A DNA stretch of 64,000 nt. It comes from a phage. The position numbers and the translations under genes were made by a program. Under the pieces are notes generated by a model. That model was not told the origin of the DNA. It worked only from the letters and a program-made list of their open reading frames with translations, and ran no database searches. Within the stretch, counting starts at the first letter, position 1, and every line of letters begins with the position of its first letter. The stretch lies in the sequence record NC_135729.1; one strand, written 5' to 3'. Shown here in pieces: positions 16,989 through 62,245 of this stretch.

Positions 16989-17087
16989 AGGTGCTAGGCG
17001 GTGGAATCGAACCACCTATGTATTCAACGACTACCTCGTCTATTTTCAGGATTAAAAATCCTCGCCCTTGCCAAAGGGCTTACCTAG
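16989..17087 (-). tRNA. aberrant tRNA-like element (about 97 nt; anticodon unresolved)
   Basis: Canonical acceptor stem, D-arm (GCCC/GGGC) and T-arm (GGTGG-TTCGATT-CCACC), but about 30 nt extra between anticodon-like hairpin and T-arm. Confidence 0.35.
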
Positions 17088-17185
17088 CTCAATATGTTGA
17101 CCATGTTGCTAGTCGGCGATGACGACTGTAACATTTGATAATCCGGTTCTGCTTCCGGCTTTCGCTTAATTGCAAGGTCAACAAT

Positions 17186-34175: not shown

Positions 34176-34762
34176 TCGGAATTGATGTAGATCTGACACT
34201 GGTAGATTCAGGAACAGCATGGTGGGAGTGGTTGGAGCGTTTGTATGGTCCAGCCAGTAAGACAGTAGCTAAACCTTCTAATGGGCTAATGTATTACGAT
34301 CTGTCAAAGTATTGGCCTGATCGTCCCAAAGAAAACATCATAGGACCTTTTGATTTCTGGAGTGATCCGTTCCTCTACGACTTCCTTAAGCCTGAAGAGG
34401 GGGCTATTGAGGTTATGAAAGATTTGGTGGCTCGTGGTCACAAGCTTGCATTTATCTCGGTATGCAAGAAAGGTCACCTTGCATCTAAATCAAGGTTCTT
34501 AAAGCGTTGGACCAGTGATTTTATGGATCTGGACGATCACACCCAGGGCCACGGCTTCTACGCCACACATTTCAAAGGTAATGTGGCTGTAGATGTTATA
34601 ATTGACGACAGGCATGAATACCTGAACCAATTCGCTTCACGACCTGAAGTTATTAAAATCCTAAAAGACACACCTTATGAGCAATTCGAGGAGTTAAAGG
34701 TCAGTGTTGACTATACCACTAATAGCTGGTATAAAATAGGAAAGTTTTTAGAAGGTATTTGA
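34169..34762 (+). CDS. HAD-family phosphatase (possible 5'-deoxyribonucleotidase)
   Basis: N-terminal HAD motif I GIDVDLTLVDS. Confidence 0.5.
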   Translation: MLIGIDVDLTLVDSGTAWWEWLERLYGPASKTVAKPSNGLMYYDLSKYWPDRPKENIIGPFDFWSDPFLYDFLKPEEGAIEVMKDLVARGHKLAFISVCKKGHLASKSRFLKRWTSDFMDLDDHTQGHGFYATHFKGNVAVDVIIDDRHEYLNQFASRPEVIKILKDTPYEQFEELKVSVDYTTNSWYKIGKFLEGI

Positions 34763-58440: not shown

Positions 58441-59133
58441 CAAAATATCAAATTTAAGACACCTAGGACGCTCTGTGGCGTCCTTTTCTTTATCTGGTGC
58501 ACGATTGCATACCTTGGGTAGTTAATCTCATTACAGAGCGTTTAAGAGCTCCCTACAAACAACTCCATATTTCGAGCGTAGCGAGAACGCACGTCCGTTT
58601 TGACCCAAATCACCATACGCTCGGATTTTAACCAAACCCTCGCGGCGTTTCTGTTGACACATTGCCGCTCCAGTGATAGTATCCACACATCGTTTGGAGA
58701 ATATGGAATACACAATGAAAACATTGTCAGAGGTTTTGGTGGTGATCCTGATGATCATTACGTCCATAGTGGCTGTTGCCGGAATACTCACGGGTGGAAC
58801 ATGATAAACACACATGCATCTGAAGAGACATCCAAAGGAGTGACTATATGTCCCTTGACTGAGCCAGTGCAAGAGGAAAACTTCGATTCTGAAGATTCTC
58901 CATCTTCGCTCCAGGTAGACCCTGAGGCTGATGACCTAACGTGGGAAGACATCGTAGATATCTGGTTCTCTATTATGCCTGAGCACGAAGAGTTCAGAGG
59001 TGGTAGACTATGAAGCACCGAGCCCACACAGGTTCCTCATGCTAAAGCATGGCCTGAAGAGGCAAACGTGCATAATTCCAGTGCATTGGAACATATAAAC
59101 CCTGTTCACATTCTCATTTCCAGAGGAGATTTC

Positions 59134-59349
59134 ATGAAGATAGAAATATTTGGTGGAGCTGACAACACTCGTGGCCTGATTTACCTTGAATTCGATGAAT
59201 CATACCTGCCAGAGGTGTTAAATATAGACTCTGTTGCTGAGGCTTTGGGAGTAAGTCCTAAAGATCTCTACTCTGGTGCTGAGATTGATGGTTGGGAGGA
59301 GACCATGAACATTGATTTCAGTGAAGTAGGTGATGAACCACTGGACTGA
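59134..59349 (+). CDS. hypothetical small acidic protein
   Basis: Start at Met MKIEIFGG with AGAGGAGA SD. Confidence 0.35.
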   Translation: MKIEIFGGADNTRGLIYLEFDESYLPEVLNIDSVAEALGVSPKDLYSGAEIDGWEETMNIDFSEVGDEPLD

Positions 59350-60192
59350 CACACAATTAGCTACCCGGCTAAAGTGCTGGGAGCACCTATAACACATCTT
59401 TCAACTAAATTTCCTACCACCACAATCACTTACCTCCCACACATGACTGTTTGCTTGTTTAGTGAGCAGTCATGCCTTGACATTCTTGCCTATCCTGATA
59501 AAATTAAGTTCTTCTCTTTTCTTTTACCGAGTAATTCGGGTTTTCTGTTCTCTTCGGTTTGAAGGGGTATAGAGATACACCTGAGTGAACAGGGTGAACA
59601 ACCGAACCATTAGCTATGGCATTAGCATGGCGAAGCGGACGGGTGACGAAAGAGGGGCCGGAGGACACCAGTCACTGCCATATGATATATGGGTGATAAC
59701 CTGAAGAGTCTGAATAAGTGTTTAAGTACCAGTCAGAGGAAAAGGTGAATGGTAGCCGAAGGGGGGAGGGGGGTTTCTTGTATCTTTAATTTGTATATTA
59801 TGTATACACTTGTAAACCAATCTAATCTGAATCTGTTTACCACGCAAAGCGGATAGAGACAAATATTGCCTATTAAACTTGAATTATTTATAGAAAATAC
59901 CACAACACCCCTTAAGTCTTTGATTTTACACACAAATCCTACAGATATTCAACCTCCATATTTAACATACTTGTAACATATTCCATACTCTACCTGTCTG
60001 ATCAACTCACCCAACTACATCCTCCATATTTCCCCTGTCTGTACTACCCCTGCCCCGCCTGGAGTCCCGTCATATCTGGCTTTCCAGCAAATATCCCACC
60101 CACAAATATCATTGCCTGAAGAGGGTTTCCTCCCATAATACATGCCTTACCTGAAGAGCGCTTCATATACCCCGTAAATTTTTTAATTGACA

Positions 60193-60225
60193 CCCTCCCC
60201 GCCGCCGGAGGGGGTTGGCTTTTCC
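60193..60225 (+). terminator. GC-rich hairpin, terminator-like
   Basis: CCCTCCCCGCCGCCGGAGGGGG followed by TTGGCTTTTCC. Confidence 0.35.
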
Positions 60226-60882
60226 CACACAGACCTGAAGAGCCAGCCAGAAATATCTGAACAGGTCCAGTTATACCACGATTTTGACCTGACCGACAGG
60301 AGTGCTGCCAGGCGGACGAAATGGGAATACTTCTCATTCTTATAACAATTCTCAAATATCGAGGCAGTGAGGCAAATTAATAGGTGAGGCCGTTCACATA
60401 GTGGCACAACATTTGCAATCTATTTTGTGTGGGGAATGAGAATACATATCATTGTGAGAACCATTATCATTACGGGCAATTTAACATAATACCCATTATG
60501 CGCACCACTGGCGATCCATACAGGGATTGATAACATGAGTTACTGTTTACACACATAACAATTATATTTCTTACTATTTGTGTGGGATATAGTTAGCAGC
60601 CGATAGATTAGATATTGACCTGTGGACTTCCAACAGTCTAGACGTCTAAGCGCCCACACAACAAGGCTTATACATACACAACTGAATGTAAACAGGGCCG
60701 CAAAAATGCTACCATACCAGCTTGTAAATTTTTCATACAGCACTTGACAAAGAGGAGAAAAACTTGTCTGACACTTTAGACACCTTTGACACACTGGGCA
60801 TACTAAACACTGGATATAATAACAATTGTTACTATTGCATGCCTCACTGTTCACGTATAGACTATTTGCTCAAAAATTATAA

Positions 60883-61171
60883 GCCATGCCATTCGTTTGC
60901 ATGATAACGATTAGCAAGTTAATAATCTTTCACTGGCTATGCCAGGTGACCTTTGGTCACCCCTTCGGGTGTTTCTATGACATAATATAAAAGCAGGGCA
61001 ACTATTAGAAGATCTATAGTTGCCTTGCTTGTTATGTCATGATTAACTAAATACAAGGCAACTATGATCTGATTAATAGTTTGCAGGCAAACTATCACGG
61101 GGGTGATGGTTACTGCTTTTATATTATGTCGCGACTCCGTCGCGCCATGCCATTCGTTTGCATAGTTGCCT
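60883..61171. repeat. repeat cluster: 20-bp direct repeats flanking nested inverted repeats and multiple GGCAACTAT/ATAGTTGCC 9-mers
   Basis: GCCATGCCATTCGTTTGCAT at about 60883 and 61144; palindromes GGTGACC-TTT-GGTCACC and GGCAACTAT...ATAGTTGCC; 9-mer in both orientations at least five times. Confidence 0.6.
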
Positions 61172-61779
61172 TATTGTTACAGGTAAAATAATCACATTAT
61201 TAATTATTTCTTATCTTTCTCTTAGTCATCTAATGATTCCAGTCAGTATAGTAATGTACAGTAGACATTAGACGACTAAAGATTTCTCTGTTTATGATAA
61301 CTCATCGTGATAATTTCGGACTGTTTACGAAAAATGTTGACACCTGAGCTGATTTATGTTATGCAGTTTACACGAATAATTATTTTATGCAGGTATTGAC
61401 TATTCCGTTATTCTGTGGTTGGAATAAATACTTTGCAGGCTATAGAATGGCGTGCGTACGTGAATTCTTAGATCTGGCGGCTATAGTTATACTCGATTTT
61501 TCGCGTAGGACACGCTTTCTATGTTGTGTAAGTGTATGACTTATAAAGATTTTTAGTTGTTGACAAGATATTGGAGATGTGCATCAGGTTAAAATTTGTG
61601 CAATAGCGGCATTACGTGCACTTTTGGGAGAGAAAACGGGTAAAAATGGCCCTGCTACCACACAGTGAAAGATTATGCAATAGTTATTTTATATGTATAT
61701 TTGTACAGTGTGTGGGATTAATGGCTAGTCAATTATTCCACTTGCCGGGTAGGGCCGTTTATGGTAGGAGAAGAGCAGA

Positions 61780-61806
61780 CAAAAAGAAAGGGGCCTTTAA
61801 GCCCCT
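61780..61806 (-). terminator. intrinsic terminator for leftward genes
   Basis: GGGGC-ttaaag-GCCCC followed by TTTCTTTTTG on minus strand. Confidence 0.5.
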
Positions 61807-61825
61807 TGATAATTCAGTTAAGAAA

Positions 61826-62245
61826 TTATAATGATTCGTATATTTCAAAAATCCGATTTGCCAGGTCGTTACGGTAGCGGAATTTTTCATCACGTTTGAT
61901 CATCAGATCTTTAAAGCCGTATTCTTTAAGCACTTCATTAACTTTATGGCGGCACACCTTCATATTGTCCTGAGCGTCACCAATAAACCTGTTGCTATGG
62001 TGCATGGCTTTAATTTCTTCTTCCAGGACCAGGGCAACTATGCGGACCGGATCAAGCTGATAGGCGGTAACATCAATGCGGCATTGTAAACGGCTTTTTA
62101 CGTCTGCCACCGGATATACTGCAACCTCTTCCCCGTCAACATTGACAATAATTAGTTTACCATCGATTTCGAATCCTTTCGCCGCCGGACCGTGACAAAA
62201 AGCGTTATCAAAGCTATATGCCGGATTATCAGATTTAATGTTCAT
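61826..62245 (-). CDS. hypothetical protein
   Basis: 139-aa ORF with AAGAGGT SD. Confidence 0.45.
   Translation of the reverse strand: MNIKSDNPAYSFDNAFCHGPAAKGFEIDGKLIIVNVDGEEVAVYPVADVKSRLQCRIDVTAYQLDPVRIVALVLEEEIKAMHHSNRFIGDAQDNMKVCRHKVNEVLKEYGFKDLMIKRDEKFRYRNDLANRIFEIYESL

Follow-up and report, generated by a model that had tools for sequence, protein, structure and literature searches.

What does a phage do with 2.5 kb of gene-free DNA at the meeting point of two convergent gene blocks? The question is raised by a 64,000-nucleotide stretch of the phage sequence record NC_135729.1 (here called the window, with positions counted from its first base on the + strand) and by a 9-mer, CCTGAAGAG, which recurs in and beside such a gap. 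By sequence comparison, the window belongs to the genus Vequintavirus, as part of an rV5-like Escherichia coli myovirus of ~137 kb, and the 3 kb around the 9-mers show 94 to 97% identity to ~120 GenBank records of that genus. The interval in question is as follows:

59350..61825, no strand: gene-free gap of 2.5 kb between convergent gene blocks

This gap carries no annotated gene in rV5, phiWec191, navn, LL12, and inoa and, in the rV5 feature tables, exceeds every other intergenic stretch by a wide margin. The rV5 genome paper of 2013 draws it as a box marked "non-coding" without explanation, and its authors, who expected terminators between genes 163 and 164, found none (PMC3606486); in the literature on the gap, we found no discussion past that box. 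As the other convergent junction of the genome, between rV5 genes 26 and 27, needs only 49 bp with a bidirectional terminator, the 2.5-kb gap presumably does more than stop transcription. Our answer, which we hold tentatively, is that CCTGAAGAG (YCTRAAGAG in its broader form) may be a selected, strand-specific linear recognition element, acting most likely in untranslated + strand RNA.

Copies of the 9-mer and their enrichment

The window contains seven copies of CCTGAAGAG, all on the + strand (34391, 41892, 59053, 59700, 60115, 60150, and 60234), where 0.53 would be expected by chance, and none of 100 shuffles reaches seven. The copies at 34391 and 41892 are in-frame Pro-Glu-Glu codons within genes; the other five are noncoding and lie inside 1.2 kb, together with a degenerate sixth:

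59053..59061, + strand: copy 1, exact, in the 120-nt transcribed spacer between the last two + strand genes (open reading frames ORF162/ORF163 of rV5)
59700..59708, + strand: copy 2, inside an almost invariant block, copy and flanks identical in all relatives
60115..60123, + strand: copy 3, one variant, TCTGAAGAG in B9-1
60150..60158, + strand: copy 4, two singleton variants, CCTGAAGAT and CCCGAAGAG
60234..60242, + strand: copy 5, 12 nt past a hairpin and U-tract
60256..60264, + strand: degenerate sixth copy, TCTGAACAG, which reads TCTGAAGAG in phage A147

A preliminary description of the window had reported the four copies at 59700, 60115, 60150, and 60234, and all four are indeed exact and on the + strand; its list was incomplete, as the fifth noncoding copy at 59053 and the degenerate copy at 60256 exist. 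To place these numbers in a complete genome, that of rV5 (138 kb) was assembled for a genome-wide 9-mer count. It has nine copies of CCTGAAGAG, five in the noncoding 1.2 kb and four in the sense strand of genes, and the word is thus not equally frequent throughout. In rV5, CCTGAAGAG is the sole 9-mer with at least four non-overlapping same-strand copies inside 1.3 kb, and the top 8-mers of the gap, CCTGAAGA and CTGAAGAG, occur 4 times versus 0.15 expected from the whole-genome background, with 0 on the opposite strand.

The coding copies are incidental. Each of those in rV5 (ORF104, thymidylate synthase, NrdD, and ORF236) is an in-frame Pro-Glu-Glu, with reading frames derived from coordinates. 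One coding copy reads CCTGAAGAG in rV5 and CCTGAAGAA in the window, and because of this difference, the word is not intrinsically immutable. Scanning viral contigs for motif pairs gave at least 120 matches, mostly in-frame Pro-Glu-Glu coding repeats, and a metagenome scan for the 35-nt doublet of copies 3 and 4 gave 79 matches, of which the 2 that are related are both Vequintavirus.

Conservation within Vequintavirus and in a second genus

The gap was aligned for 17 relatives, comprising 15 GenBank phages that span 89 to 97% identity and two viral contigs, which were picked via a flanking gene and are hence unbiased as to the motif. Exact copies fill 87 of 90 copy-by-genome cells, and the three variants are all singletons. 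As the genomes are related, columns rather than cells were counted, leaving out the copy inside the invariant block. Variable columns amount to 3/36 in the motif versus 83/261 in the flanks (Fisher p = 0.0017), and columns varying in at least two genomes to 0/36 versus 53/261 (p = 0.0005). When four 9-nt blocks are drawn at random from this region, they equal the motif in conservation in only 1.4% of draws. On this comparison, CCTGAAGAG in the gap is under purifying selection and is a real signal, not a chance repeat.

The individual copies add detail. Copy 1 is identical in 17/17 relatives. Single-base indels in relatives break the frame that runs from GTG 59068 to ATG 59134, so the stretch around this copy is noncoding, and since it is sited between two co-oriented genes, copy 1 must be transcribed as + strand RNA. 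The base directly upstream of copy 3 varies freely, and copy 4 always follows copy 3 by 35 nt, in a local 18-nt imperfect duplication (repeat family D8). Copy 5 is identical in all relatives, with flanks 88 to 93% identical. Successive copies are separated by 646 to 660, 390 to 415, 35 (fixed), and 82 to 150 nt across genomes and by different distances again in Septuagintavirus. The fixed 35 nt corresponds to 3.3 helical turns; the other spacings are unfixed and not helically phased.

A separate observation at copy 1 concerns one viral contig (UViG3300, L005; IMGVR_UViG_3300010279_000001), in which a 46-nt double-hairpin insertion lies exactly at this copy, with AAGAG on both sides. The insertion resembles the reverse complement of window positions 60933 to 60974, and small GC hairpins with UUCG-type loops appear to move within the gap, probably by microhomology.

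Beyond the genus, homologues of rV5 ORF164, the gene to the right of the gap, are found in Phapecoctavirus (89% amino acid identity) and in the Septuagintavirus group (A5-4, 86%), and blastn gives no alignment of the gaps next to these homologues with the window gap. The Phapecoctavirus gap has no copy of the motif. The A5-4 gap contains CCTAAAGAG, TCTGAAGAG, and CCTGAAGAG, all oriented as in the window; the tract around them is rich in C and poor in G (skew -0.26 to -0.42), and a G5AG5AG5 run is nearby. It has 26 exact 10-mers in common with the window gap, versus 7.8 in shuffles, and the common words CCCACAAATATC, GCCTGAAGAGG, TGCTGCCAGGC, and TTTAACATAATAC form roughly colinear islands. Four further phages of the A5-4 group (A7_1, A73, W70, and LTH01) contain YCTRAAGAG two to three times, always on this strand and never on the opposite one, and the TCTGAAGAG variant is also present in Septuagintavirus gaps. 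In A7_1 and LTH01, the sequence just 3' of the third copy is entirely different, with the motif kept. As the motif persists beside a replaced flank, the element is older than the alignable sequence around it. From these copies, the consensus across the two genera is read as YCTRAAGAG, and the noncoding copies in both genera have one orientation, that of the + strand operon and of a conserved promoter described below.

The RNA reading and its alternatives

How such an element might act depends on what surrounds it. The left half of the gap contains the following:

59477..59504, + strand: sigma-70 promoter, TTGACA-16-TAAAAT with a TG extension, 11/12 consensus matches
59511..59760, + strand: almost invariant purine-rich segment, in which 8/250 columns vary versus ~32% in other noncoding flanks
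59760..59783, + strand: G6AG6 run and then TTTCTT, at the end of the invariant block, length polymorphic
59880..60192, + strand: C-rich, G-poor (rut-like) tract, the strongest strand-composition outlier of the genome
60193..60222, + strand: GC-rich hairpin with a U-rich tail, terminator-like, kept in all relatives

The promoter hexamers are kept in nearly all relatives, with one -35 change in one genome. In the most divergent relative, the spacer has 7 substitutions and a 2-nt insertion, and since both hexamers are intact while the spacer changes, this conservation is the signature of a working promoter. The block at 59450 to 59760 is 98 to 100% identical in the 17 relatives, which differ by 5 to 10% elsewhere, and is more conserved than the adjacent gene. 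Within it, the small ORFs have no coding signature (in that at 59585 to 59704, 5 nonsynonymous and 2 synonymous changes, counted by hand), and the predicted fold of 59510 to 59790 is no better than that of shuffles (z = -1.2 on the + strand and 0.06 on the - strand). Searching the gap against Rfam gave no family at gathering score and, at E up to 10, two chance-level matches only. Judging from its pattern of conservation, the block could be a noncoding RNA gene or a transcription-primed cis-acting DNA element. Two of its eight variable sites lie in the loop of a small hairpin, CCATAT-GAT-ATATGG (59678 to 59692), and the G6AG6 run has a similar counterpart in the G5AG5AG5 of the A5-4 gap.

The tract downstream is extreme in composition. 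Over ~59880 to 60240, the + strand has 29% A, 30% C, 10% G, and 30% T, with GC skew as low as -0.61, and the equivalent rV5 intervals are the 8 most negative in GC skew and the 8 lowest in G of 6,888. YC dimers number 19.5 per 100 nt versus 11.9 genome-wide, and the predicted mean unpaired probability is 0.63 versus 0.34 in the upstream block. Some 300 nt with 7 to 10% G and without a conserved ORF thus lie downstream of the + strand operon and the 59477 promoter, and the composition of the tract agrees with that of a Rho-dependent terminator, for which a C-rich, G-poor stretch of at least 70 to 80 nt, untranslated and on the transcribed strand, is expected. Copies 3 and 4 are located at the 3' edge of the tract. 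The duplicated word CCTCCATATTT occurs in it at 59953 and 60021, close to the positions given in the preliminary description, and both occurrences fall within longer duplications that are imperfect (59950-59963/60018-60031 and 59976-60000/60017-60041). The same description placed all four of its copies in a C- and A-rich, G-poor tract, of which the C richness and G poverty hold for ~59880 to 60240 only; A is ordinary (29%), and the copy at 59700 sits instead in the purine-rich, almost invariant block, where GC skew is +0.36. The hairpin at 60193 to 60222 survives substitutions as well as adjacent insertions of 11 to 70 nt in relatives. These insertions mark an indel hot spot at 60194, between TTGACAC and the hairpin, in some relatives; at a further hot spot, 60290, navn, CM1, APECc02, and inoa have a 40- to 50-nt hairpin module and another group a shorter variant.

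The repeats had initially been proposed to be a protein-binding array or repeated RNA elements. That they are functional, strand-specific elements is borne out, as they are better conserved than their flanks and kept in a second genus. A phased cooperative DNA-binding array does not fit the variable, unphased spacing, and known or repeated structured RNA was rejected, as there is no Rfam family and no fold or structural context common to the copies. What these alternatives leave would be a short linear recognition site, in RNA or DNA. Coding sequence was rejected as well, given frequent indels not divisible by 3, no synonymous bias, and the out-of-frame 35-nt spacing of copies 3 and 4, and so was a Shine-Dalgarno role, as copy 1 alone has a suitable start codon and its frame is broken in relatives. 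A base-pairing partner, CTCTTCAGG, is absent from the noncoding and tRNA regions of the window and rV5, and the variants CCTAAAGAG and CCCGAAGAG are not wobble-compatible.

We tentatively favor an RNA site for four reasons: all copies in two genera point along + strand transcription, copy 1 lies in polycistronic mRNA, the spacing is free to vary, as for independent sites on RNA, and the composition of the surrounding tract would keep the RNA single-stranded and load Rho. We infer that + strand transcription continues into the gap past 59511, that RNA is the form in which the element is recognized, and that it has a binding partner. In the proposed sequence of events, the + strand operon and the strong, conserved sigma-70 promoter at 59477 would feed untranslated RNA into the gap. 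Its path would lead through the C-rich tract, the most depleted in G of the whole genome, where RNA is predicted to have little structure and has the composition of a Rho-loading (rut) region; there, the purine-containing 9-mers may be exposed as single-stranded sites. An RNA-binding protein or endoribonuclease with sequence specificity, encoded by phage or host, could then bind or cut CCUGAAGAG and in this way govern RNA processing, termination, or sequestration at the point of convergence of the two transcription units.

Several observations weigh against this proposal. The predicted accessibility of individual copies is inconsistent (mean unpaired probability, 0.33 to 0.66), and the copy at 59700 lies outside the G-poor tract, in purine-rich sequence that looks structured. 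For the hairpin at 60193, the - strand fold is at least as good as that of the + strand, although only the + strand has the U tail. The flanking ORFs have no RNA-binding, DNA-binding, or Rep-like Pfam domain above threshold and hence offer no partner, and we found no transcriptome for Vequintavirus, which leaves + strand transcription of the tract as our deduction. Lastly, a non-palindromic site in double-stranded DNA would be compatible with this evidence, and sequence alone does not permit a choice between action as RNA and action as DNA.

An extension of the RNA reading seems unlikely to us but is specific. The gap may encode a long noncoding phage RNA, initiated at the 59477 promoter, in which the CCUGAAGAG copies on a G-depleted body bait an RNA-binding factor or nuclease of host or phage, as a decoy or recruitment platform, possibly coupled to Rho-dependent termination at the convergent junction. 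The sponge RNAs CsrB and CsrC present many GGA sites for CsrA in hairpin loops, and prophages of enterohemorrhagic E. coli (EHEC) encode anti-small RNAs (anti-sRNAs). The gap resembles such sponges and the EHEC anti-sRNAs in its short motif, irregular spacing, drifting spacers, and promoter-driven noncoding RNA, which here is a presumed transcript; unlike CsrB and CsrC, it has only four to five sites, no common structure, and no partner that we could find. The gap has no similarity to E. coli in 5,426 genomes searched in distant mode, and host mimicry is unsupported.

The main rival, possible though doubtful in our estimate, holds that the copies are independent double-stranded DNA sites for a phage or host protein, be it a transcription factor or a nucleoid, packaging, or replication protein, with direct orientation resulting from a non-palindromic monomer site. 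It accounts for the same enrichment and conservation, and the largest noncoding region, with its other repeat families, palindromes, and AT-rich stretch, is typical of cis-acting DNA; this stretch (59776 to 59900, GC 0.32 to 0.36) lies between copies 2 and 3 and is the most variable, replaceable part of the gap's left half. Protein matches to PHROG families are of unknown function for the flanking ORFs, except for one "transcriptional regulator" 1.6 kb upstream, a point in favor of DNA sites. Iterons (lambda ori and plasmid Rep) and terminase arrays (lambda cosB R sites and P1 pac hexamers) likewise are direct, non-palindromic repeats in a main noncoding region with an AT-rich neighbor. However, the spacing here is neither conserved nor phased, the neighboring genes include no initiator and no terminase (the terminase genes lie at a distance of 45 kb), and a search of the gap for DnaA boxes, allowing up to 1 mismatch, gave none. 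The gap is where genes converge and the cumulative GC skew has its peak, a terminus polarity opposite to that of an origin; a GC-skew change at 104425 to 105475 has been reported for rV5 (PMC3606486). An iteron origin was rejected on these grounds. In published PhageTerm runs, the genomes come out as circularly permuted or headful packaged, and neither fixed ends nor a packaging site are mapped; the several GenBank records that start inside the gap reflect assembly breaks, which are no evidence for or against a pac site. Nor would DNA sites require uniform orientation in two genera with shuffled modules. As a separate matter, DnaA-box-like 9-mers (TTATCCACA, up to 1 mismatch) number 38 in the window versus 19.4 expected, a count that 0 of 100 shuffles reach, and none of them is in the gap. 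A second alternative would make the tract itself the functional unit, a Rho-dependent terminator for the + strand operon and the 59477 transcript, with the 9-mers as pause or release points or as tolerated purine islands. No region of the genome favors C over G more strongly than the tract, which is YC enriched and lies on the + strand at the end of the + strand operon, where intrinsic terminators were not found by the rV5 authors (PMC3606486); copies 3 to 5 cluster at its 3' edge, where Rho release would occur, and the A5-4 gap is of the same composition. In being C-rich, G-poor, untranslated, predicted unstructured, and on the transcribed strand at an operon end, it is like known rut sites, which differ in having no conserved 9-mer. 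Rho needs no specific 9-mer, copies 1 and 2 are outside the tract, and, as read from sequence, no copy has the G that the consensus pause carries at -10. Rho would thus account for the tract, but composition leaves the conservation of nine exact bases unexplained, and we consider it improbable that termination by Rho is the whole function.

Two further explanations fare worse. The copies might have no function of their own, as relics of local duplication or decayed Pro-Glu-Glu coding whose apparent conservation reflects a young genus. Over 15 to 18 nt, copies 3/4 and 1/3 are imperfectly similar, which suggests duplication, the 9-mer is a common coding word (four in-frame Pro-Glu-Glu copies in rV5 and many tandem repeats of this tripeptide in unrelated viruses), and divergence in the genus is merely 3 to 11%. 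We nevertheless judge this quite unlikely, since, within the same genomes, variation is significantly lower in motif columns than in the columns next to them, the motif is kept in a genus whose gap is otherwise unalignable and whose flanks are replaced, the coding copy that differs between rV5 and the window shows that the word can change, and no ORF is conserved across the tract, where indels are frequent. The closest sequence resemblance that we found, by base matches, is to the boxB RNA of lambda nutL, GCCCUGAAGAAGGGC, with 8/9 bases, CCUGAAGA(A/G), including the whole GAAGA pentaloop and the 5' stem CCU. Lambda boxB, too, is a strand-specific RNA signal (a role only proposed here) among C-rich, G-poor, rut-like sequence of a termination zone. 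That the copies are nut-like or boxB-like antitermination sites, or phage-specific promoter elements, is nonetheless very improbable. The stem closing GAAGA is 2, 1, 4, 1, and 1 bp in copies 1 to 5, versus 5 bp in the lambda control, and 1 to 2 bp in most Septuagintavirus copies; copy 3 alone can form a 4-bp stem, two pairs being wobbles. No boxA-like word (CGCUCUUA) occurs upstream of any copy on the + strand, and rV5 has no N-like arginine-rich ORF, the two segments with at least 7 Arg in 18 amino acids being on the noncoding strand of known genes. A nut site was rejected because the stem is missing in four of five copies and boxA and an N-like ORF are absent. Whereas lambda has a single promoter-proximal boxB, the window has several copies at an operon end, far from the promoter, in a virulent myovirus unrelated to lambdoid phages. 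For a promoter element speaks CATAAT, 18 to 19 nt after copies 1 and 3, but the distance to an A/T-rich, -10-like hexamer is inconsistent (12 to 19 nt), the A5-4 copies lack such a hexamer downstream, copies 2 to 5 have no gene behind them, and the 33 annotated rV5 promoters are ordinary sigma-70 promoters, none of them in the gap. Sigma-32-like, sigma-E-like, and sigma-70-like readings of the motif were rejected for inconsistent spacings.

Surroundings of the gap and significance

To the left of the gap, the last gene of the + strand block ends at 59349. To the right, the first gene of the - strand block occupies 61826 to 62245 and has its terminator at 61807 to 61788 on the - strand. The right half of the gap contains a composite at 60883 to 61163, in which two perfect direct repeats of 20 nt, GCCATGCCATTCGTTTGCAT (60883 and 61144), stand on either side of an 18-nt inverted repeat, also perfect (60979-60996/61113-61130), that encloses several GGCAACTAT/ATAGTTGCC palindromes. 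Its left side (60750 to 61000) is the least conserved part of the gap, with 69 to 80% identity, and in its arrangement the composite looks like a small mobile element or operator cluster. Words of a second family, CCCACACA/TGTGTGGG, are scattered over the gap in either orientation (59437, 60225, and 60654 on the + strand; 60427, 60582, and 61711 on the complement), and CCCACAAATATC, which is related to the CCCACACA family, precedes motif copies in Vequintavirus and in A5-4. The most enriched 6-mer of the gap is CACACA (7 versus 0.95 expected); an enrichment of TTGACA in the gap is unsupported by the k-mer test.

There are two further side observations. Nineteen GenBank records of "Campylobacter phage" (Campylobacter jejuni; MG0656xx), marked UNVERIFIED, are 90 to 97% identical to this Vequintavirus region and are probably mislabeled or contaminant coliphages. 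At 16990 to 17088 on the - strand, in the phage tRNA cluster, ARAGORN predicts a tRNA-like gene of 99 nt whose anticodon has 4 bases (atcc); this gene is not reported by Rfam and is unannotated in rV5.

The gap itself was already known. New are the 9-mer, the selection on it, and its survival in a second genus, along with the invariant block driven by its promoter and a tract composition more extreme than any other in the genome. Short cis-elements in repeated copies are familiar from phage regulatory regions; the specificity and setting of this one are not, and it matched none of the element families with which it was compared. Phages like rV5 are commonly isolated and serve in cocktails for therapy and biocontrol, and their large noncoding region has been unexplained since 2013. 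Five 9-mers and one promoter now provide concrete targets for phage engineering and RNA mapping. If the element is a DNA site, it would be a pointer to the replication or packaging signals of the subfamily. If it is an RNA site, it would represent a new specificity among the few known phage regulatory RNAs.

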